From Rubripirellula sp. (GTDB lineage Bacteria > Planctomycetota > Planctomycetia > Pirellulales > Pirellulaceae), in assembly GCA_965216875.1 (NCBI GenBank), contig OZ244207.1, positions 768,001 through 832,000 on the forward strand: DNA of 64,000 nucleotides, in the 5' to 3' direction. The notes beneath the pieces were generated by a model. It had not been told where the DNA came from. It was given only the letters and a program-made list of their open reading frames with translations, and searched no databases. This document shows, piece by piece, positions 47,125-59,869 of this stretch (its first letter is position 1; every line of letters begins with the position of its first letter). The translations under genes were made by a program, and so were the position numbers.

Positions 47125-48369
47125 CTAAATCGTCAAGTTCGCACCGACATGAATACGCGATAGACCGGCGCGCCCGACGCGCCGAATCGCGAGCACAAAT
47201 GCAGCGGTCCGCATGTCGACATCGTGTTGGTTCGCCGTTTCACGCACCGCTTGATAGGCCCGCGACATCTTCTTGTCCAGTTCCTGGTTGACGCGTTCTT
47301 CGTCCCAGCTGAACTGCTGGATGTTCTGAGCCCATTCGAAATAACTGACGGTCACCCCGCCGGCGTTGGCAAGAATGTCGGGCACAACCAGGACGCCGCG
47401 GTCAACCAGGATTTGATGAGCATCCGGTGTCGTCGGTGCATTTGCGCCCTCGACAATGATGCTCGCTTTCACACCATCGGCATTGCTTTCGTCGATCGCA
47501 TCCTCCAGTGCAGCAGGAACCAAAACGTCGGCGTCCCAAGTGATGATCTCGGGGCCATCGAAAGCGTCACCGTTTGGGAACCCCTTCACGCCGCCGTTTT
47601 CAGCCGTCCATTGAATCAGTGCTGGGATATCGAGCCCCGCTTCTCGCGCGACTCCGCCGGTGTGGTCGGCGACCGCAACGATCGTCGCCCCGCGTTCGGC
47701 GATCAGTCTTGCAGCATGGCTGCCCACGTTTCCAAAACCTTGAACGGCGACGGTCACTTCGTCGAACGTCTTGCTTTTTTCGCGCAACGCCTCGGCGAGT
47801 GCATCCATCACGCCGCGTCCGGTAGCCGCGTTGCGTCCTTCCGATCCAAACAGGTCGAGCGGTTTGCCAGTGACCACGCCTGGCGAAAAGCCTGCGTACT
47901 TCGAATACTCGTGCATGATCCAGCCCATCACCTTGGAGTTGGTGTTGACATCGGGGGCCGGAATGTCGGTCATCGGTCCGATCACTTCCTTCATATGCTC
48001 GACAAACTGGACCGTCACCTTGTAGAGGTCACCTTCGGAAAGCGTCTTAGGGTCGCAATTGATTCCGCCCTTGGCTCCACCAAACGGGACATCGACGACA
48101 GCCGTTTTCCAGGTCATCAAGTTTGCCAGAGCACCCGCGTGATCCTCGTCCATCGCAGGATGAAAGCGAAGCCCACCTTTCATCGGACCGCGCGCCATGT
48201 TGTGCTGGACACGATAGCCCTCGAAGGCATGCAATTGCCCGTCATCACCTTCGATCGCGATTCCCACTTTCACCGTGCGATGGGGCGTCAAGAGAATCGT
48301 GCGAACCTTATCCGACAGTCGTAGAACATCGGCGGCCTTGTGGAAGTAGAGATGACTTGCAGCGAGCAT
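47125..48369 (-). CDS. gdhA: Glutamate dehydrogenase (Glu/Leu/Phe/Val family)
   Basis: RGPMKGGLR, MTWK, GGAKGG, PAPDV, QGFGNVG, EGAN, NAGGV. Confidence 0.93.
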   Translation of the reverse strand: MLAASHLYFHKAADVLRLSDKVRTILLTPHRTVKVGIAIEGDDGQLHAFEGYRVQHNMARGPMKGGLRFHPAMDEDHAGALANLMTWKTAVVDVPFGGAKGGINCDPKTLSEGDLYKVTVQFVEHMKEVIGPMTDIPAPDVNTNSKVMGWIMHEYSKYAGFSPGVVTGKPLDLFGSEGRNAATGRGVMDALAEALREKSKTFDEVTVAVQGFGNVGSHAARLIAERGATIVAVADHTGGVAREAGLDIPALIQWTAENGGVKGFPNGDAFDGPEIITWDADVLVPAALEDAIDESNADGVKASIIVEGANAPTTPDAHQILVDRGVLVVPDILANAGGVTVSYFEWAQNIQQFSWDEERVNQELDKKMSRAYQAVRETANQHDVDMRTAAFVLAIRRVGRAGLSRIHVGANLTI

Positions 48370-48428
48370 GGTTTCCTCGGGGGGCGAACGTGGAGCGAAT
48401 CAACAGAGTAGCAGATTCGCTTCGCGCG

Positions 48429-48484
48429 TTGGTTTCGCAATGCTCGGGCGCTTGTTTTGGTTTCGCAATGCTCGGGCGCTTGTT
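48429..48484 (+). repeat. Exact 28-bp tandem duplication
   Basis: TTGGTTTCGCAATGCTCGGGCGCTTGTT at 48429 and 48457. Confidence 0.9.
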
Positions 48485-49282
48485 TTAGAAGACGCCCAGG
48501 ATCCAGCCTTCAAGACTGGCGAGCGCGCGCTGTTCTGAGTTGAGGGGTGGATCGAAATAGCGGGCGAGGATGTGTTGCCGATCTGATTCCGACAACCATC
48601 TTGAAACACTGTACGCATCCTGTTGGTCACAGAATCGCTGCTCTCGCTCATAGCGGTTCCGAAAGACCGACGGATAGACCTCGGCAATCACCGATTTGTC
48701 ATCGGGGAATGTCCATCCATCAAAGGGCCAAAAATGGAGACGGTCACCATTTTCGTGTTTCAGTTTTTGAAGCCACGGGATTCCGGCATGCGTCGATTTC
48801 GCGACGCTACCCTGGACGTCAAATTGAAACACTGATTTGGCCGAACTCGTCCAGCGTTCGGTCAATCGGAATTCAGAGTTTGTGCCGGACCGATAGGAAG
48901 CAGGACCGCCGGCTTGCAGACGCAACGCTTCGATTTCGATATCATCGAGATGCGCCGGCCAGTGCTTTACGAAATCGTCAAGGAAGTGTTGCCACGAGGT
49001 TATGCCGTGCCTTTGGAAATAAGTGATCGGAAACGAAAAGCCATGGTCAATTCCAGCGACAAATCGTTTGCCATCGTTCAATTGACTGGTTAGCCATTGG
49101 GCGATTTCTTTGCGACACCAGTTTCGTCTCGCCGAGACAGATGTAGCCGGTTTGACAAGCAGTGGATCGCCCATCCCATCGCACGCGTAGACCTGAAGCG
49201 TGCGGCTTCGAGACAAGGGGGTTTTTGCTCCCGAGTAGTCGATGCCTATGTAGCGATCAGAGATCGTTGTGGATGTGATCAC
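48485..49282 (-). CDS. DUF429-like predicted RNase H-fold nuclease
   Basis: YIGIDYSG, GIDHGFSFP, AEVYPS, DQQDA, EGWILG motifs. Confidence 0.72.
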   Translation of the reverse strand: MITSTTISDRYIGIDYSGAKTPLSRSRTLQVYACDGMGDPLLVKPATSVSARRNWCRKEIAQWLTSQLNDGKRFVAGIDHGFSFPITYFQRHGITSWQHFLDDFVKHWPAHLDDIEIEALRLQAGGPASYRSGTNSEFRLTERWTSSAKSVFQFDVQGSVAKSTHAGIPWLQKLKHENGDRLHFWPFDGWTFPDDKSVIAEVYPSVFRNRYEREQRFCDQQDAYSVSRWLSESDRQHILARYFDPPLNSEQRALASLEGWILGVF

Positions 49283-49309
49283 TTGCGCAAGAATCTAAGA
49301 GGGGGATTG

Positions 49310-51766
49310 TTAAAACATTAGCATTTGCGTCTGGTTTGCCGCGTCATGAGGTACCGTGCTGGCAAGTTTGCCGAGCACGCGTCCAGCTAAAGCGACGCCA
49401 CTTGAGAAGGCATCCTCGACGCGATCGCCCCCGCACCAATCACCGCAAGCTCCAAGCATCAACTCATCATCAAGCAAACACTTGGCATCGATTGGCGTGT
49501 TGGGGATTGCATATCGCCAGCGATGCGTTTGGATGTATCGCGATTGAAGAGACTCGCATCCGACGAGACGACAAAACTCATCCATCAAATCCCGCTGAAC
49601 CGAATTTGGTGAATCCTCGACATGACGTTGAGACCATTCGTGTGTCGCATGTACGACCCAATTGTCGACGACGCCGATTCGGCCGGGCTTGCTGTCGTTT
49701 TTCGCAATCCATCCGATCGGAGATTGTTCGACGAACGCGCCGTCGAATTCAGCCTCGAGCGACTTTTCAAGCGACAGCATCATCGCCCAACAGGGTGACA
49801 TTTCTGCCATGCGGGCTTGGGCGGCGAGGTGAATGGCGCCCGACAAAAGCGACTTGGCTTGATTCGCTGGCGTCGCAATCAAGGCCACATCGAACTCTCC
49901 CAAGGGATTCTCATCAGCGTCCGTTAACGCCCAGCGATTGCCGTTGCGAACGGGTGGAGAAACTCTTATTTCAAGCCGAACGTCAAGATCGGTCGCGAGG
50001 TGTTTGCCGAGTGCATTCATTCCCGGAACCGCAACAAATCGCTGCCGCTGGGACATTCTTGCTTGAGTCCCACGATCCCCGATCGTGACGATACGTCCAG
50101 TCCAGGGGGCAACGATTCCATCGTCGACCCAAGATTGAACATGGCGTTTGAATAGGTCACTTCTCGCGGTAAAAAACTGAGCACCGTGATCGAAAAGCAA
50201 GTCATTGTCCGCCAGGCGTGTTGCCATTCGGCCACCAAACCCGCGGCTTTTTTCAAAGACTGTTACCTGACAACCCTGGTCCGCAAGTGTCCGGCCGCAG
50301 ATCAGCCCCGAGATTCCCGCACCAATGATTGCTACTTTCGGAGCAGACCGCCAAAGACAGCGTGTCGCTTTGCGTCGAAACACGCTCGGATCGAGTCGCT
50401 TTGCGTGTTGTTGTGTCGTTCGCGGACGCACCGTGCCAATGACAGGTTGCTCTGGGGTAAACGGACGGTCAAATTGGCCGAGGCACCACAAGATACCGCC
50501 ATAAGAGGCTGGGTCGCTTCCGTCGAGCGCGTAACGATGATTCAAGTCGATCAATCGATCCAACGCATCCGCTGCATTCGCCGTCCATTGCAAGACTGAC
50601 TTACCCCACGTCATTCGGACATTGTTGTGAAGTTCACCATGAATCAGGAGTGAACGTTGAGCCGAATCCCATAGCGAATCGCCGGTTCGCCCTCGAGCCA
50701 TCGTTTCCCACGAATGCAATTCCCTTTCGTCGCGTTCGTGTTCTTTTAGCGTCGCCTGGGCCCATGTGGGGATCGCCGAGATCGTTTCGTGGTCCCGACG
50801 AAAATGACAGAAGACGTACGCTAGCTCCCGCCAAATCAATAGTTCGTCAAGGAATTTCTCGGCCCCGCGATGATCGAACGCAGAAGCTTCGCGTGCGATT
50901 CGCATCGGTGCGACCATCCCATAGTGAAGGTAAGGCGAAAGCCGGCTGACACCATCGATCAAAGGGTCGTTGCGTCGCCGATCGTAGGTTGAAAGCCCAT
51001 TTTCCTTGAATTGGTTCCACCGCTTGTACCCCGCAATGAACCCTCCGACGGTGTGCGGTATTGGCCCAATCGAATGATCAATCTCACATTGACTGACTAA
51101 GTCAGCGATGTCGCAGTTTTGAAGATCGACACAATCAAAGGGGACGTCGATCGACCGCTGAAGCAATTGATCGAGTCTCCGGCATGTCGGTTCTCGCTTC
51201 ACCCGATCTGCGAACATCTTTGTTGTTGCGTTGCGAAAAGCGAATGCTCGGTCATAGCTATCGCCAACCAATTGCATGGGCACGATGCATGCGGTGTCGA
51301 CCGCCAACAAGCTGCAGGGCAAATCTCGTTCTAGCTCGATCGTGGATGATCGCATCGGTTCGGTTGGCATGTCCTCGGTGATGACAACCGCGGCACGCCG
51401 AGCAAGCGTCTTGAGGTGAGAGCCCCGATTTCCGGCGCGCTCGACATGCAGCAGGTAGTTGACATGCTTTCGAGCAAATTCACTCTGAACGTCGCGAGCG
51501 CCCTGCAAGATAAACGTATGGTGTCGATCAGAAGCGAACGGATAGCTGCTCGAGACCTCCTGGTAGACGACGACAGGAAGCTGCAAACGAGTTGCGCATT
51601 CGGCTGCAACGTCAAGAGCTTGGTTTTCCTCGGTCCGAATGGCCGACCGCATCCAATACAAGACAAACTCGCCAAGTGGGTTCACATCCGCTCTGCTGGC
51701 GGGTCGAATTCGTTCAACGAGATCAACCGGCAATGATTCGACCAGCTCTTCGCAATCCATGATCAC
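49310..51766 (-). CDS. Class II CPD photolyase-like domain fused to a renalase-like FAD-dependent oxidoreductase
   Basis: N-half: [57 protein letters not shown]-half: [37 protein letters not shown]. Start is GTG 51766 or ATG 51760. Confidence 0.9.
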
Positions 51767-51927
51767 TCCGGCGATTGAGAGGGCTTTCGTGGCCTATTTC
51801 GGCGACAACGCTGGCTACAGTACCGCACCTCGTGCCAACAGTTCTTCCACTTTTTCCGCCACGAAAACGGCCTGCCGCACACGATGCAGATCTTCGACAG
51901 AGTGTCGTGTTTTCCGGACTTTGGCAT
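51763..51927 (-). CDS. DUF2256 small zinc-binding protein
   Basis: [30 protein letters not shown]; its stop overlaps the photolyase start. Confidence 0.9.
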
Positions 51928-52147: not shown

Positions 52148-52846
52148 ATGATCGATATTCGACGGGCCGATGATCGAGGTCACGCCGACCACGGTTGGCT
52201 GAACTCCTACCACACGTTTTCTTTTGGCGAATACCATGATCCGCGGCACATGCACTTTCGCAAGCTGCGGGTGATGAACGAAGACCGCGTTGCGCCCGGC
52301 CAGGGATTTGGCACTCACGGACATCGTGATATGGAAATCGTTTCGTACGTCCTTGAGGGTGCGCTCGAGCACAAAGACTCGATGGGCAACGGCGAAGTCT
52401 TGAAGCCCGGTGAGTTTCAACGCATTACTGCCGGGACGGGAATCACGCACAGCGAATTCAACCCGTCCGAGACCGATCCGACGCACTTCTACCAAATTTG
52501 GCTCTTTCCCGAACGAAAAGGGATTGAGCCAAGCTACGAGCAGAAGTCGTTCGATGAAACGGGGCGAATCAACCAATGGCAACTCGTCGCCTCGCGAGAT
52601 GGAGACGATGGGTCGCTCGTCATTCATCAGGACGCCAAGATCTACTTGGCAAACGTGAAGGCGGGTCAGGACCTCCGATTTCAACCTGCGTCCGGTCGTT
52701 ACGCATGGTTACAGGTCCTCCGCGGTAACGTGAGCCTAGCGGGCAACTCGCTGCAAGCCGGCGACGGAGCCGCCGTCAGCGAGGAGCCGGAAATCGTGGT
52801 TTCTTCCAGTCGCGACGCCGAATTGATGCTGTTCGACCTGGCGTGA
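52148..52846 (+). CDS. Pirin family protein (YhhW-like)
   Basis: GAGGAG RBS; RGHADHGWL.SYHTFSF, GFGTHGHRDMEI, AGTGITHSE, QIW. Confidence 0.93.
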   Translation: MIDIRRADDRGHADHGWLNSYHTFSFGEYHDPRHMHFRKLRVMNEDRVAPGQGFGTHGHRDMEIVSYVLEGALEHKDSMGNGEVLKPGEFQRITAGTGITHSEFNPSETDPTHFYQIWLFPERKGIEPSYEQKSFDETGRINQWQLVASRDGDDGSLVIHQDAKIYLANVKAGQDLRFQPASGRYAWLQVLRGNVSLAGNSLQAGDGAAVSEEPEIVVSSSRDAELMLFDLA

Positions 52847-53197: not shown

Positions 53198-53914
53198 CTA
53201 AGCTCGAATCGTCGACAAGCCGCCGTCCACTCGCACCACCTGTCCCGTCATCCAAGCAGAGCGGTCGCTGATTAAGAATTCTGCCATGGAGGCGATGTCG
53301 TCGATCGTGCCTATCCTTTTGAGCGGATGACGTTCGGCCATCGCCGCTCGCTTTTGATCGCTGGAAAGAAGGGAAGCGGCTAAAGGCGTGTCGGTAAGCG
53401 AAGGGGCAACGCAATTGACACGAATGTTGGGCGCAAGCTCCGCGGCGAGGGATCTCGTCAATGCCTCGATCGCTCCTTTCGACGCGGCAATGCTCGCATG
53501 CATCGGAAGCCCCTGGGAAGCTGCCACCGTGCTGAACAAAACGATGGCCGGTGGTGCGGTCATCGCGGAGGCCGCTTTCATCGCAGGTAGCGCTGCTTGC
53601 AGGCACCTGATGGCACCAACTACGTTCAGCTCGAAGTCGTTGATCATCTTGTCTGGTTTGATTCCGCGCAGGGGACCGAGGTTGATGGAACCAGGGCAGT
53701 AGGCGAGACCGTCGATCACCGACGGCAACATGTCGGGTGTGATTTCATCTGCGGTCACATCTGCTTTGATGTGAGTGACACCTGGCATCGTGTCGACATC
53801 GCCGGCGTGGCGTGAGATGACGGTTGTTTGGGCACCGGTCGATGTCAGTCGCTTGACCAAGCCGAATCCGATCCCACGGCTTCCGCCAACGACGACATAG
53901 GATGAGTTTTTCAT
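53198..53914 (-). CDS. SDR family oxidoreductase (atypical, catalytic Tyr apparently absent)
   Basis: GGSRGIG, FSTVA, SIAASK in place of YxxxK, RVNCVAP, VDGG. Confidence 0.9.
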   Translation of the reverse strand: MKNSSYVVVGGSRGIGFGLVKRLTSTGAQTTVISRHAGDVDTMPGVTHIKADVTADEITPDMLPSVIDGLAYCPGSINLGPLRGIKPDKMINDFELNVVGAIRCLQAALPAMKAASAMTAPPAIVLFSTVAASQGLPMHASIAASKGAIEALTRSLAAELAPNIRVNCVAPSLTDTPLAASLLSSDQKRAAMAERHPLKRIGTIDDIASMAEFLISDRSAWMTGQVVRVDGGLSTIRA

Positions 53915-53917
53915 GTT

Positions 53918-55444
53918 CTAGAAAAGCCTTTGACTTTGATTTTGACTTGGGCGAGTCTTGCGACTCGATCTTTTGCGACTGCCATGTTTTTTGACGACGC
54001 GTTGGGCGTCGGCCTTCGCAGCCTCGTTTTTTCGGACCGCGTAAATCCGTTCACGAGCCGCTTTGTAGGCGACCGAGTGCTCGACGATCGGGGCTGGATA
54101 GTCGACGTCGATTCGACAGCCCGATTGGGACTGTTGGTCGAGTGACATCTTGTGGGGCTCGGCGAGGTGCTCTTCTGCCACACCACGTAACTCGGGAACA
54201 AACTTGCGAATGAATTCACCCGAAGGGTCTTGGTCCTTGACTTGTTTGATCGGCGAGTAGATCCGGACCGTGTTGATGCCCGTCGTCCCGGACTGCATTT
54301 GAAACTGCGAGAAATGAATCCCTGGTTCAAAGTCCAAGAAATGTTTGGAGAGGAATAGTGAGGTTGGTCGCCAATGCAACCAAAGATGGTAAGACGCGAA
54401 CGAAACGAGCATCGCTCGCATGCGGAAATTGATCCAACTGTGTTGATGCAGAGCTCGCATGCAGGCGTCGACCATTGGATAGCCCGTGCGACCGTGGCAC
54501 CAAGCGTCGAAACGATTCTGGTTAAACTCATCTTCGCGAAGGCCATCGTAGACGCGGCTCATGTTTTCGAACTCAAGCGAGGGCTCATCTTCAAGCTTCT
54601 GCATGAAGTGACAGTGCCAGCTCAGACGAGACTCGAAGGAACGCAGTGATTTGAGCCAACTGCCGATCGGCTCGCCCATGCCTCGAAGTTCTCGCAGTTC
54701 GCCCTGTCGTTGATGCAATTCATAAGCAACTCGTTTGACTGACAGGCAACCCCAGGCAAGGTACGTGCTCAATCGGCTGCAGGATTCGCCCGCCGTCACG
54801 GGACTCGACATTTCGCTGCTGTAGTTTTGCCCACGCTCATCGAGGAATGATTGGAGTGTTCTGTGTCCGGCCGCTTCCCCACCTCGCTGCAGCCCCGTTT
54901 TGCTGGTTGGAGCGATCCCTAGATCTTCTGCTTGCTGAATGCGAGCGGACTCGATCCCCGGCGGGTGCCTAATCCTCTTTGGCCGTGAAGCGATTGGCTC
55001 TTTCAAAAACTCGTTGCGCCGATTGGACCATCCATCACGAGTGTCCAGCTGGCGAATGACCCCGTTTTGCGGGATCTCGTGCCAAAGGATGCCACGCTCA
55101 TTTGCCCAATCGCTAACTCGACGATCGCGATCGTAGGTGATGCGATTTCCGGTTTCTTGGTGGCTCCAGATGGATTCAATCCGCTGTGAATCATTGAGCC
55201 TCGAAAGGACTTTGGTCATTTCGCCGACGCGCAAAGTCAACTCGCCGCCAAGATCGCTCAGTTGGCCTGCCAGCTCCTCGAGTGATTCGTTGATGAACTG
55301 CAGGTGAGAAGCATCGAATTCGTCGGATGTCAGAATCTCGGGCTCGTAGACATACAGGCACAGGCAAGACGCATGCTTGGACGCCATCTCAAGCGGTCGG
55401 TGATCATCGATCCGCAAATCACGCTTGAACCAAACGACATGCAT
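53918..55444 (-). CDS. Photolyase/cryptochrome family protein
   Basis: VVWFKRDLRIDD, SRLSTYLAWG, WHCHFMQKLE, GRTGYPMVDACMR, WINFRMRAML, DFEPGIH, DQDPSGEFI. Confidence 0.92.
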   Translation of the reverse strand: MHVVWFKRDLRIDDHRPLEMASKHASCLCLYVYEPEILTSDEFDASHLQFINESLEELAGQLSDLGGELTLRVGEMTKVLSRLNDSQRIESIWSHQETGNRITYDRDRRVSDWANERGILWHEIPQNGVIRQLDTRDGWSNRRNEFLKEPIASRPKRIRHPPGIESARIQQAEDLGIAPTSKTGLQRGGEAAGHRTLQSFLDERGQNYSSEMSSPVTAGESCSRLSTYLAWGCLSVKRVAYELHQRQGELRELRGMGEPIGSWLKSLRSFESRLSWHCHFMQKLEDEPSLEFENMSRVYDGLREDEFNQNRFDAWCHGRTGYPMVDACMRALHQHSWINFRMRAMLVSFASYHLWLHWRPTSLFLSKHFLDFEPGIHFSQFQMQSGTTGINTVRIYSPIKQVKDQDPSGEFIRKFVPELRGVAEEHLAEPHKMSLDQQSQSGCRIDVDYPAPIVEHSVAYKAARERIYAVRKNEAAKADAQRVVKKHGSRKRSSRKTRPSQNQSQRLF

Positions 55445-56649: not shown

Positions 56650-56815
56650 CGCTGCATACACTCGTCACAGACGCGAAATTCTCTCTCGAGTCTGTTAATT
56701 CCAAGTCTGTCTTGCGGTTACCAAAGCTGTGGTCGGACGCGATCGACGCTCGCCTGGAGTCACTTGCGTCGTCGTTGCCGTTGCTGGTCGATCATTGGGG
56801 GCCGAATGGAGAAAG

Positions 56816-57787
56816 ATGAACGATCTCAAAGACAAAAAGATAGTCATCGCTGGCGGGAGCGGGTTTCTCGGCCGGTCGATGACCGAGGCTTTTTCGAGAT
56901 CCGGTGCATCGGTGACTGTCTTATCGCGATCAGACATGCCATCGGCAGAGGCGGTCACCTACGAAAAATGGGATGGTAGAACACTGGGGGCGTGGGTTCG
57001 ATCGCTCGAAGGTGCCGATTCGGTTGTGAATCTTGCTGGGCGGAGCGTAAATTGCATCAAAACACCTGACAACCAAGACGAGATCTTAAGGTCTCGTGTC
57101 GCGTCAACCGCGGTGCTAGGAAAGGCAATGCGGGAGTTGTCCGCACCACCGCCGGTATGGGTTCAGATGAGCACGGCGCACATCTACGGCGATCCGCCTG
57201 AGGTGGTGTGCACTGAAAACTCGGATCTCGGGATTGGGTTTGCGCCCACAGTCGGACAAGAGTGGGAACGAGCGTTCTTAGCCGGCTTGCTTCGCGATCA
57301 AAGAGGTGTCGTGATGCGAACGAGCTTCGTCGTTGGTCGAGATCGGGGCGCTGGAGGCGGTGCACTCGAGACGCTGCGGATGATCGCGAGGATGAGACTC
57401 GGCGGGCGCGTTGGTCGTGGCACTCAAGGCATGTCTTGGATCCATGAATCCGATCTTAATCGGTTGTTCATCAAGGCAACGACCGATCCGTCGATGCAAG
57501 GTGTGTACATCGCATCGGCACCCAACCCTGTTTCTCAGTCCGAATTCATGAGCGTTCTTCGAAAAGTGATGGGCATTCGAATCGGACTTCCGGCGACAGA
57601 GTGGATGGTCCGCATCGGCGCTCCACTCGTCATGCGGACCGATCCCGAACTCGCTCTCTATGGTCGGTACGTGGTCTCGAGTCGCTTGCGAGACGAAGGT
57701 TTTGAGTTTGAGTTCCCGGGACTGCAACAAGCGTTGACGGATCTGCTAGGCCAAGCGTCAAACGTCGCGGCAACGTCCGTTGGGTGA
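56816..57787 (+). CDS. TIGR01777/DUF1731 family NAD-dependent epimerase-like oxidoreductase
   Basis: [37 protein letters not shown]. Confidence 0.88.
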
Positions 57788-57988
57788 ATCTTTCGCGTCT
57801 GAACACAGCCGGGGCAACGAAGCTCGCCCCTCGCCCTTTCTCGTTCATTGGGGCATGAGAGAACACTACGTGTTCACCTGATGTGTACGCACGTTCTTGG
57901 TTGTTGGGTGTTTGCAATTCAAATACGTTCTCAGTATCAAACATGGCGCTCGGTTTTAGCACCGAGTTTTGATACTTGGGGACACACA

Positions 57989-59869
57989 ATGCAAATCAAC
58001 GTTAACTACAAACTTGAACACCTCCCGTCCGAGCCTGGTAACTGGCTTCCGGGTTATCCGAATCCAGCAGACTTTCGTTTCGACTATTTCAAGCTGCTTG
58101 AAAACGCTCCGGAAGGTCTTGCTGCCATCGACGATTCGGTTGGTCGGCGGGTCGCGATCGTTGGCGCTGGTTGCGCGGGGATGACAGCGGCGCGTGAGTT
58201 GCATCGCTGCGGGTTCGATGTGACGATCTACGAGGCGAGTGAGCGAATTGGTGGTCGCCTTTTCACACGCGACAATCCGACCGGGCCAGAGCAAACGGGA
58301 ATGGAGATGGGCGCCATGCGGATGCCCTTTTTCAGTTTGCCGGGGTCAAAAAACAGCATCCTCGAGTATTACATGATGCATGAGGATCGAAGTCACGCGG
58401 CCGCGCCGGTGACCTTTCCGAACCCCGGATCCGCTCCCGGTGGCACCGGGATTTATATGAACGGCGGGCTCGGTCCAAAGGGGAGTTTCGACAAGCCCAC
58501 AATGATTGATTGGCCAGCTGGTACGGCGCCCGACAACAAGACGATCGCAAGTCTCGCAAAAAAGGCCACAAAGTTCATTGGCGCATTCGAAAACAACACA
58601 AAGAACATCTATACAGCTGACGACGATCGATGGGAAAAGCTGTGGGCCAAGATCGTCGAGTTTTATGAACCGATGACCTTTGGTGATTTGGTAAGACTTG
58701 CGTCAAAGAAGAAGCCCGATCTCGAGACGGGCGACTTTGGCGGGTTCGGCATGAACGAAAGCGAATCGAACCTGCTCTACACGATCGGTACCGGTGACGG
58801 CAGTTGGGGCGCCTTCTACAGCGTCTCGGCACTATGGTTCATTCGCTGCACGATGTTCGGCTTTGGCGGAAGTGAGCTACAAACGGTAGCGGGTTACTCA
58901 GACCAAGTTGGCATGCCCCACTACGGCGATTCCGTTCAGGATTCGGATGGGCGGCCGTTACCATCGCCAAGATTCCGCGGCATTCAGTCGCTCGTCGAGT
59001 ATCTCTATTTCGTACCGGCGCCCGGTTCACCGTCCTCGCTCTACGATGCTGACAACGTCCAACTTTATTCTCAGTCGCACGTTTCAACGATTGCGAAACT
59101 GCAAAACGGTAAAACACAGATTCTCGCCGAGAATCAGCCAGCCAAGTATTTTGACCACGTCTTTGTGACCTCTGGTCAATGGGCGTCGCAAATGTCGTTT
59201 CAACTCGAAGGCTTTTCGCAAGACGAATTGCCTCTGCTTAAGACGACCGCCGAACATGTCCAGCACAATATTTCGAGTTGCAAACTTTTCTTTCCGTTGA
59301 AAACCAAGTACTGGAATCTTCCCGGCAATCGGATCCCTCAGGTCATCGTCACTGATACCTTCCTGCAAGATGCCTACGCGCTCGACTGGGATGAATGCGA
59401 AGGGGATACCGGCGTGATGCTTGCGAGTTATACGTGGGAAGACGACTCGCTCAAACTGCTGCCCTTTTCTGAGGAAGAATTGGTGGCGAAAGTGATCGAA
59501 AAGATTCGCGAAATTACAGTGTCGACCGTCGGCCAAGACGTGACGCAGCACTTCGTTGCCGACAAACCGGTGACGTTGCAGTGGATCCTGCAACCGAGTT
59601 ACGACGGGTGTGCAAAGCTTTATCGTCAACGCAATGAATCGTTCAATCAGATCGACTTGGCATATAATCAGTATTACGGCGGCAAGTCAAACCTGTACTT
59701 TGTCGGCGAGAACTACTCAGTCGAAGGCGGCTGGACGGAACCGGCGCTTCGATCCGCACTCGATGGTGTCCTGCGTTTGCTAGACCAGAATGGAGCGGAG
59801 TTTAAGGTTCGAGATTTCGATTTTACGCGTGACTACCCAAGTTGGCCTGAACCGACCGAGTCGAGCTAG
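57989..59869 (+). CDS. Flavin-dependent amino acid 2-monooxygenase (tryptophan/lysine 2-monooxygenase, IaaM/DavB-like)
   Basis: DF.FDY, VAIVGAG..G..AA.EL, IGGRL, EMGAMRMP, FPNPG, SYTWEDD, GGW.E.A. Confidence 0.82.
   Translation: MQINVNYKLEHLPSEPGNWLPGYPNPADFRFDYFKLLENAPEGLAAIDDSVGRRVAIVGAGCAGMTAARELHRCGFDVTIYEASERIGGRLFTRDNPTGPEQTGMEMGAMRMPFFSLPGSKNSILEYYMMHEDRSHAAAPVTFPNPGSAPGGTGIYMNGGLGPKGSFDKPTMIDWPAGTAPDNKTIASLAKKATKFIGAFENNTKNIYTADDDRWEKLWAKIVEFYEPMTFGDLVRLASKKKPDLETGDFGGFGMNESESNLLYTIGTGDGSWGAFYSVSALWFIRCTMFGFGGSELQTVAGYSDQVGMPHYGDSVQDSDGRPLPSPRFRGIQSLVEYLYFVPAPGSPSSLYDADNVQLYSQSHVSTIAKLQNGKTQILAENQPAKYFDHVFVTSGQWASQMSFQLEGFSQDELPLLKTTAEHVQHNISSCKLFFPLKTKYWNLPGNRIPQVIVTDTFLQDAYALDWDECEGDTGVMLASYTWEDDSLKLLPFSEEELVAKVIEKIREITVSTVGQDVTQHFVADKPVTLQWILQPSYDGCAKLYRQRNESFNQIDLAYNQYYGGKSNLYFVGENYSVEGGWTEPALRSALDGVLRLLDQNGAEFKVRDFDFTRDYPSWPEPTESS

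Follow-up and report, generated by a model that had tools for sequence, protein, structure and literature searches.

A class II-derived photolyase fused to a renalase-like flavoprotein in Rubripirellula and other bacteria

The source of the substrates of bacterial renalases is, to our knowledge, an open question. Photochemical reduction of nicotinamide adenine dinucleotide (phosphate), NAD(P)+, yields 1,2 and 1,6 dihydro isomers according to the passages available from PMC7660482. For the class II photolyase of Methanosarcina mazei, the residues that bind the cyclobutane pyrimidine dimer (CPD) and the bubble-intruding residues are named in passages of PMC6126647, and those of PMC5885780 place Tyr345 at 3.8 Å from Trp388 as the fourth member of the photoactivation chain, next to a water cluster held by Tyr380, Lys384, Glu387, Ser342, His356 and Asp357 that is described as general to class II; there, what reduces the flavin of photolyases, or the Trp radical, in vivo is called controversial. 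Light-inducible LitR/PmlR clusters of Pseudomonas hold phrB, a short-chain dehydrogenase (SDR), a flavin adenine dinucleotide (FAD)-dependent oxidoreductase and cryB (passages of PMC9758184 and PMC11417400). Here we describe a gene that joins a class II-like photolyase and a renalase-like flavoprotein in a single polypeptide, found in a stretch of 64,000 nucleotides (the window) from Rubripirellula sp. (assembly GCA_965216875.1, contig OZ244207.1, positions 768,001 to 832,000). The fusion brings the questions of the photolyase reductant and of the renalase substrate together in one soluble protein, and it ties renalase to light stress. It is apparently undescribed as far as we searched, and widespread in bacteria: no description or prior characterization was found in the full-text literature, where supplements and most subscription papers lay outside the search; members might be present in the sequence table of PMC7736829, and the passages cited from that network paper and from dbCRY (PMC4016680) do not mention it.

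The open reading frame (ORF; 49310–51766, minus strand) encodes 818 amino acids without an internal stop and is a real gene. Residues 35–466 match the class II photolyase of M. mazei (8OET, E 1.1e-49; residues 35–463 in 2XRY, E 1.8e-49) and the rice enzyme (3UMV, E 9.3e-47), with class I enzymes at 1e-8 or worse, and residues 477–801 match the Pseudomonas renalase 4ZCC (E 1.6e-66). A preliminary description made from the letters alone had claimed a single uninterrupted frame of this composition, and it is borne out by these structure and family matches; the motif residues that it quoted (W366, W387, W394, R384/D415, N409 and HNNVRMT) are all present, and the coupling to a DUF2256 gene upstream and the 27 bp to the downstream gene were confirmed, the GTG start being overlapped by 4 bp (GTGA). 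The database gene call of 816 amino acids fits an ATG start at 51760 preceded by GGAG. A stop or frameshift between the halves was sought in the reads, and none was found. One contig, possibly from the source sample, spans the whole stretch with zero differences, and in a run of an independent study one contig bridges the junction without indel; the differences listed for that run include 30 in the fusion ORF, affecting 28 codons and creating no stop. We therefore rejected an assembly artefact, as database proteins and other loci carry the same fusion. The 120 best database proteins cover 79–100% of the query and are publicly annotated as ‘FAD-dependent oxidoreductase’ or ‘photolyase PhrII’. 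A promoter scan of the locus returned 0 sites, terminators were at chance level, and a search for full-length matches in plasmids found none.

Whether the fusion is sporadic had been raised as a possible objection; instead it is conserved and marks a photolyase clade of its own. With the photolyase half alone as query, 126 of the 150 best representatives at 50% identity carry the renalase, always C-terminally, and the remaining 24 include one unrelated repeat protein and many fragments. In a FastTree phylogeny of the photolyase halves, 467 non-redundant fusions (the set used for all family counts below) and 14 proteins without a full renalase form one clade with support of 100, which excludes all 25 canonical class II enzymes used for comparison, all of them from the phylum of the window; the 14 sit inside the fusion clade. 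The 80 close stand-alone renalases are interspersed with the fused ones (45 changes on the tree), so that stand-alone forms seem to arise repeatedly within fused ones, and some may be pieces of broken fusions. Both halves lie in one frame in all 80 of the best genome loci, a set ranked by full-length score and hence biased towards fusions, and containing some frames truncated N-terminally or by the end of a contig. By record title these loci belong above all to Planctomycetota, and also to Gemmatimonadota, Acidobacteriota, Pseudomonadota, Myxococcota, Bdellovibrionota and Rhodothermaceae. The spread is patchy: 5 of 300 further genomes from the phylum and 7 of 40 relatives carry the fusion, which is absent from both same-genus genomes searched (84% and 97% complete). 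Fusion-bearing genomes also carry a canonical class II gene in 7/8, 4/5 and 3/5 cases, compared with 20/33 relatives without the fusion; the fusion does not replace the canonical enzyme. Besides the fusion, the genome under study has three other photolyase-family genes, four in all: a canonical class II gene (C1:8025.3-8026.8 kb, motif HNYLRMLW), an iron-sulphur (FeS)-type gene and the gene at window positions 53918–55444.

Several members of the wider set are unusual. The unfused clade members P0250, P0270 and P0258 group together, and the first two have 300-residue N-terminal extensions and insertions and may be eukaryotic. P0126, a protein of 4593 residues, contains many class II photolyase-like repeats in tandem (14 stretches matched) and may be an assembly or gene-calling artefact. 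P0132 and P0202 are fusions with a shortened, barely recognizable renalase half that still ends in the interface helix motif. A second, lower-depth contig of the same sample (runs X1/X4, records 2 and 7) matches two short parts of the photolyase half at nearly the same spacing, and a further organism in the sample seems to carry a relative of the fusion.

The photolyase half adopts a two-domain photolyase fold whose best match is class II (target template modelling (TM) score 0.85–0.91 to class II structures). Using M. mazei numbers (2XRY chain numbers minus 18, from the alignment), the seven CPD pocket residues R164, R256, N257, E301, W305, M379 and W421 are all kept in the window protein and in 427–467 of the 467 fusions. 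In fusion numbering, the CPD-binding positions are kept as R178 (455), R265 (467), N266 (427), E308 (463), W312 (465), M385 (464), W427 (461), D433 (465), R434 (457) and R447 (464). Three of the four bubble-intruding residues (D428, R429, W431, R441 of M. mazei) are retained as well, the position of W431 being occupied by Phe in 436/467 fusions and by Trp in none (0/467). The FAD ligands R384, N409 and D415 are found in 467, 466 and 466 fusions respectively, and the Trp triad W387-W366-W394, which corresponds to W381-W360-W388 of M. mazei with R378/D409 and N403 at the flavin, is kept in 467, 462 and 462. The conserved cysteines C160, C227, C320 and C428 were considered as a candidate Fe-S site; C227 is present in 417/467 of the wider set. 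The position of M. mazei R411, which we assume to have a role in antenna binding, is variable (S417 here, Arg in 277/467), and a search of this genome for CofG above cut-off found none, hence no sign of synthesis of the 8-hydroxydeazaflavin (8-HDF) antenna. In its working residues this half resembles a class II CPD photolyase, and it probably repairs CPDs. It departs from the class in two of the features tested, the curated cut-off of the phr2 model TIGR00591 (305 bits, E 1.2e-90, against 550 bits) and the Tyr345 and water-cluster site, and is a class II-derived subfamily as judged from sequence.

The CPD pocket is kept; the changes lie at the distal end of the photoactivation chain. The equivalents of Tyr345, Tyr380, Lys384, Glu387, His356 and Asp357 are retained in 134, 0, 5, 36, 14 and 312 of the 467 fusions, compared with 25, 6, 25, 21, 24 and 25 of the 25 canonical enzymes. 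Of these six residues the window protein keeps Asp357 only, 353/467 fusions keep none or one, and 25/25 canonical enzymes keep four to six. Residue 351 of the fusion occupies the position of Tyr345. Two residues further on, a Trp has been gained in the fusion clade (W353, 355/467), which is absent from the residues listed for the 25 canonical enzymes and from nine unfused clade members (0/9). The remodelled site itself persists in these nine, with A390 and T386 in 9/9. Neither a Trp/Tyr at 353 nor a Tyr/Trp at 351 is present in 89/467 fusions, and, when compared on the tree, losses of W353 and of the renalase substrate site show no association (median p 1).

The C-terminal half is a renalase by fold, of GR2 type (38% identity to 4ZCC, TM 0.95), and may well oxidize dihydro-NAD(P). 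It is the only renalase found in a search of this genome. GxGxxG is present in all 428 fusion rows tabulated. The residues Y57, F204, W212, H232 and R308 of 4ZCC (chain numbers), which we take to form the substrate site together with R280, correspond to F531, F678, W686, H706 and R782. R280, presumably the Arg that stacks the nicotinamide, is I754 here; the change is common to the 80 closest stand-alone renalases (L in 45, I in 27). Six or seven of the seven presumed substrate-site residues are kept in 350/467 fusions. In the 78 fusions with a degenerate site, GxGxxG, D526, G775-D776 and W750 are still found at 87–100%, and the site has been lost many times independently (35 changes on a tree of the photolyase halves only, against 65–77 after shuffling). 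This hints at a role beyond renalase catalysis, a hint that is weakened because 3/16 distant stand-alone renalases, from Gammaproteobacteria, score as low on the same seven residues, and the ‘degenerate’ site may reflect no more than normal divergence within the subfamily.

The two halves appear to be rigidly docked beside the terminal Trp of the photoactivation chain. Four lines of evidence point to this; they share one family alignment and so are only partly independent. The distance from NxRxALDG to GxGxxG is 63–65 residues in 421 of the 438 measurable fusions. AlphaFold2 models of the whole chain reach a predicted TM score (pTM) of 0.93 and 0.95 with two different alignments, which would not be expected of freely tethered halves. 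Mean-field covariation over the 467 sequences places the pair 352–545 at rank 2 of all pairs, the strongest inter-domain coupling, followed by 232–791 (rank 18), 352–549 (rank 23) and 234–497 (rank 24), with inter-domain noise from about rank 57. On a tree built without these columns, and for pairs selected after the fact, D/S at 352 changes with R,K/D,E at 549 in the same direction in 6.9 of 8 independent pairs and in the opposite in 0 (p 0.016), and 352 with 545 in 11.8 versus 2.1 of 18 (p 0.013); 232/791 gave no signal (p 1), 234/497 was not significant (median p 0.125), and the three control pairs among the pairs listed were null. Finally, the halves folded as separate chains with two FADs score 0.93, against 0.00 for the best control, a mark that 116/157 solved complexes and 2/215 mismatched pairs reach; these counts apply only roughly to the present case, in which our own alignment was used and the ligands were carried along. 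The split-domain runs agree in at least 95% of contacts, with a partner predicted local distance difference test (pLDDT) score of at least 92, and the halves of split genes tend to pass this kind of test.

The predicted contacts join photolyase residues 80, 84, 219–237, 350–360 and 371–375 to renalase residues 493–498, 538–549 and 791–805, and include residues of all four covarying pairs. Residues 350 and 352–355 take part, with W353 on 541/544/545/548 and 352 on W546, and D80/T84 of the antenna domain also touch the renalase. The listed interface brackets residue 351, so that the renalase would sit beside the electron-entry end, where the clade is remodelled; it leaves out both this residue and W394. 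None of the CPD-pocket or renalase substrate-site residues is part of it, and both active sites therefore look open. On the photolyase side, the interface has decayed in the nine unfused clade members (W353 0/9, E354 1/9, R358 2/9). On the renalase side, G795 is found in 436/467 fusions versus 24/80 close stand-alone renalases and is the only residue that clearly differs; R492, D496, H497 and W546, which had looked fusion-specific beside 16 distant renalases, were rejected as such because the 80 closer ones keep them (R492 in 73, D496 in 62, W546 in 77). Searches of the PDB found no solved protein that contains both halves, and the docking is a prediction, not proof of binding.

The genes around the fusion were surveyed in 80 genome and 80 metagenome loci (flanks of at least 6 kb in 63 and 30). 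Other photolyase/cryptochrome genes occur near it in 27/80 + 14/80 loci (41/160), SDR genes in 14/80 + 11/80, DUF2805 in 9/80 + 2/80, and DUF2256 in 12/80 + 16/80 (28/160), immediately upstream and co-directional in 5 of these 28 cases and immediately downstream in 10, with side and strand varying. The DUF2256 assignment in the window is firm (PF10013, E 8.9e-20, 71 bits vs cut-off 25). The downstream gene had been called a DUF429-like nuclease. Its 265-residue product has no Pfam match at E 0.001 (PF04250 included) and no solved relative; DUF429 stands as a lead from the Atlas (feature match of 0.98 to a cluster auto-named ‘putative DUF429 domain-containing protein’, with PF04250 on 11% of a further cluster), and the nuclease activity is only a label. 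Such a gene lies beside the fusion in 1/80 genome and 0/80 metagenome loci. From these counts, the conserved unit is the fusion alone, roaming among light-stress clusters, and the nuclease-like gene is a passenger. A three-gene system for DNA and cofactor repair, as first proposed, is thus largely refuted and retains hardly any probability: the spacing in this genome is tight, locus L003 also has a DUF429-like gene just downstream of its fusion and one relative has one about 19 kb away on the same contig, but the homologues in 3/40 relatives never adjoin a fusion, which also led us to reject the nuclease as a working partner, and DUF2256 is a frequent but not fixed neighbour. Among 17 further gammaproteobacterial renalase loci, one is another fusion, and 3 of the 16 stand-alone renalases have a photolyase-family gene within 6 kb. 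One of the stand-alone renalases with such a gene within 6 kb (L145) lies between a MerR gene and an amine-oxidase/DUF1365 pair; no match to this MerR protein was found near the 160 fusion loci.

We give about an even chance to the reading that the fusion is a rigid bifunctional light-stress repair enzyme with separate catalytic cycles. The N-terminal half would bind FAD, be photoactivated via W387-W366-W394 and split CPDs in the manner of class II photolyases, while the C-terminal half would bind a second FAD and oxidize 1,2- and 1,6-dihydro-NAD(P), the presumed inhibitory products of non-specific (including photochemical) NAD(P)+ reduction, back to NAD(P)+. The halves would be held against each other in one pose that leaves both active sites accessible, with each running its own cycle, and the fusion, presumably induced by light, would deliver both repairs together. 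This reading is favoured because the CPD pocket, FAD ligands, Trp triad and renalase fold are kept and neither active site is in the predicted interface, because each half survives alone (the 14 unfused clade proteins and the 80 interspersed renalases), and because photolyase/cryptochrome genes flank fusions and some stand-alone renalases alike. Of the roles proposed in the preliminary description it corresponds to the pairing of DNA repair with metabolite repair; light gating by blocking of a site is not favoured given the open active sites. Several observations nevertheless weigh against the bifunctional enzyme. As a canonical class II enzyme is usually co-present, the photolyase half does not simply supply these cells with their CPD enzyme; DNA-contact positions are altered (W431 to Phe, YM to xR); Arg at the R280 position is found in only 101/467 fusions, and 78/467 have a degenerate substrate site while keeping the FAD-binding motifs. 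Moreover, if the fusion only delivered the two repairs together, neither a fixed linker nor a co-evolved interface beside W394 would be required, nor would losing the Tyr345, Lys384, Glu387 and His356 equivalents.

These last features bear on the main rival, a coupling of the two flavins in the light, which we regard as possible but doubtful. The renalase FAD, reduced by dihydro-NAD(P) isomers or NAD(P)H, would fill the hole on W394 via the interface; the path, equally tentative, might run via position 351, W353 and W546, replace a soluble reductant and keep the photolyase FAD reduced under oxidative light stress. The clade could then conceivably, though we would not expect it, have swapped a solvent-facing Tyr/water-cluster chain end for a docked renalase whose NAD(P)H-charged flavin fills the light-generated hole. 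Its best support is that the strongest inter-domain coupling and the predicted interface flank residue 351, where the renalase would dock and the canonical residues have mostly been lost; in addition, W353 is frequent in fusions and absent from the nine unfused members. Against this, the listed contacts include neither W394 nor residue 351, 89/467 fusions have no Trp/Tyr at 351 or 353, the unfused members keep the remodelled site, W546 is also found in most close stand-alone renalases, W353 does not follow the renalase substrate site, and stand-alone renalases arise repeatedly within fused ones; reduced renalase flavin also reacts fast with O2. A dark variant, in which the photolyase FAD would receive electrons from NAD(P)H by way of the renalase flavin and no light would be needed, is very improbable even with two flavins in a fixed predicted pose. 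Three Trp lie between the photolyase FAD and the docked surface, each flavin would be at least one structural layer from the interface, and renalase contacts 791–803 should lie two or more turns of the helix away from its flavin-facing start. From chain length and helix positions the flavins would be far more than 14 Å apart, which makes single-step dark reduction unlikely and leaves light-driven filling of the hole as the only plausible route; hopping along Trp residues requires a hole produced by light. The earlier proposal that NAD(P)H chemistry is coupled to the photolyase is thus kept open by the linker and interface for light-driven transfer, and its dark form is unlikely on this geometry. 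It also seems unlikely that the second flavin is an antenna or structural cap, or that the pair senses light, with the redox state of the photolyase tuning renalase activity via the interface. The repeated loss of substrate-site residues with FAD motifs kept, the lack of CofG, the contacts of D80/T84 and the co-occurrence of canonical enzymes would fit, but stand-alone renalases can be equally degenerate, the CPD pocket is almost invariant, unlike that of sensor cryptochromes, and the emission of oxidized FAD overlaps FADH- absorption poorly. Quite improbable, too, is self-cleaning, in which excited FADH- would reduce stray NAD(P)+ in the dinucleotide pocket to dihydro isomers for the tethered renalase to remove; the photochemistry (PMC7660482, in the passages cited above) and the unfused renalases near photolyase genes are in line with it, but the restriction of the fusion to this clade and the rigid dock would be left unexplained.

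The analysis names interface and relay residues for tests (352/545/549, W353, W546 and G795). If the flavins are coupled, this would be the first photolyase with a built-in reductant domain as far as our searches reach, and the disposal of toxic cofactor isomers would power DNA-repair readiness within one polypeptide. If they are not, the protein would still represent a widespread class II subfamily with no earlier description, one that does without the water cluster regarded as general to this class.

The features of the locus are collected in Table 1. The photolyase/cryptochrome-family gene near the fusion encodes 508 amino acids, falls below all NCBIfam cut-offs, lies 3 bp from the SDR gene and is perhaps NewCRY-like. 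At 5–8 kb from the fusion lie a 673-residue flavin amine-oxidase-family gene (57848–59869) and a TIGR01777-like epimerase (56729–57787), each recurring in at most 1/80 loci. Immediately behind the DUF429-like gene lies a head-to-tail duplication of about 29 bp (48428–48486), at which short-read contigs break; a glutamate-dehydrogenase-family gene (47125–48369, minus strand) follows beyond it. At other loci, families without Pfam match recur beside the fusion, represented by L068:8502-9644 (about 380 residues; 6+7 of 80+80 loci), L053:2315-2779 (154 residues; 5+4) and L066:4847-5323 (158 residues; 5+2), and an Fpg/Nei-type DNA glycosylase (L056:7129-7929) adjoins it in 5/80 + 2/80.

Table 1. 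Features of the fusion locus, in window coordinates
Feature	Position	Strand	Remarks
Photolyase-renalase fusion gene	49310..51766	-	818 aa from GTG; 816 aa from ATG 51760
Class II CPD photolyase-like half, residues 1-468	50363..51766	-	CPD pocket, FAD ligands, Trp triad kept; terminal Tyr and water-cluster ligands replaced
Inter-domain linker, residues 459-476	50339..50392	-	Length fixed in family; predicted ordered
Renalase-like FAD oxidoreductase half, residues 477-801	49364..50338	-	38% identity to 4ZCC, TM 0.95
Photolyase interface patch (predicted), residues 219-237	51056..51112	-	Covariation and split-domain prediction
Photolyase interface patch (predicted), residues 350-360	50687..50719	-	Flanks M. 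mazei Tyr345 position; contains clade-specific W353
Renalase interface helix (predicted), residues 538-549 (S545, W546, D549)	50120..50155	-	Covariation and split-domain prediction
Renalase interface helix (predicted), residues 791-805 (G795)	49352..49396	-	Split-domain prediction; G795 conservation
DUF2256 small protein	51763..51927	-	4-bp overlap with fusion start; frequent, not fixed neighbour
DUF429-like protein	48485..49282	-	27 bp downstream; local passenger, outside conserved unit
Pirin, divergent neighbour	52148..52846	+	
Short-chain dehydrogenase	53198..53914	-	Matches recur beside fusion: 14/80 + 11/80 loci
Second photolyase/cryptochrome-family gene (PF00875 + PF03441, not class II)	53918..55444	-	Kind recurs beside fusion: 11/80 + 4/80 loci

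Compared with known systems, the fusion shares with the M. mazei class II photolyase the fold, the CPD pocket, the FAD ligands, the W381-W360-W388 triad and the bubble residues D428, R429 and R441. It differs in its low identity (25–27%), its score below the TIGR00591 cut-off, HNNVRMTW in place of HGYMRMYW, Phe for W431, the mostly replaced Y345/Y380/K384/E387/H356, the new W353 and the C-terminal renalase. With the renalases of Pseudomonas (4ZCC, 4ZCD, 5KRQ, 3KKJ) and human (3QJ4) it has in common 38% identity, TM scores of 0.94–0.96 at a root-mean-square deviation of 1.3–1.6 Å, the FAD motifs and the five presumed substrate-site equivalents listed above, whereas R280 is I/L in most fusions and their closest stand-alone relatives, and the fused renalase is predicted to be docked via three helices. 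Its neighbourhood recalls the light-inducible LitR/PmlR clusters of Pseudomonas, which also combine photolyases, an FeS-type photolyase, an SDR and flavoproteins; there, the genes are separate, and the FAD-dependent oxidoreductase is not identified as a renalase in the passages cited above, while in the fusion the photolyase and a renalase are one protein.

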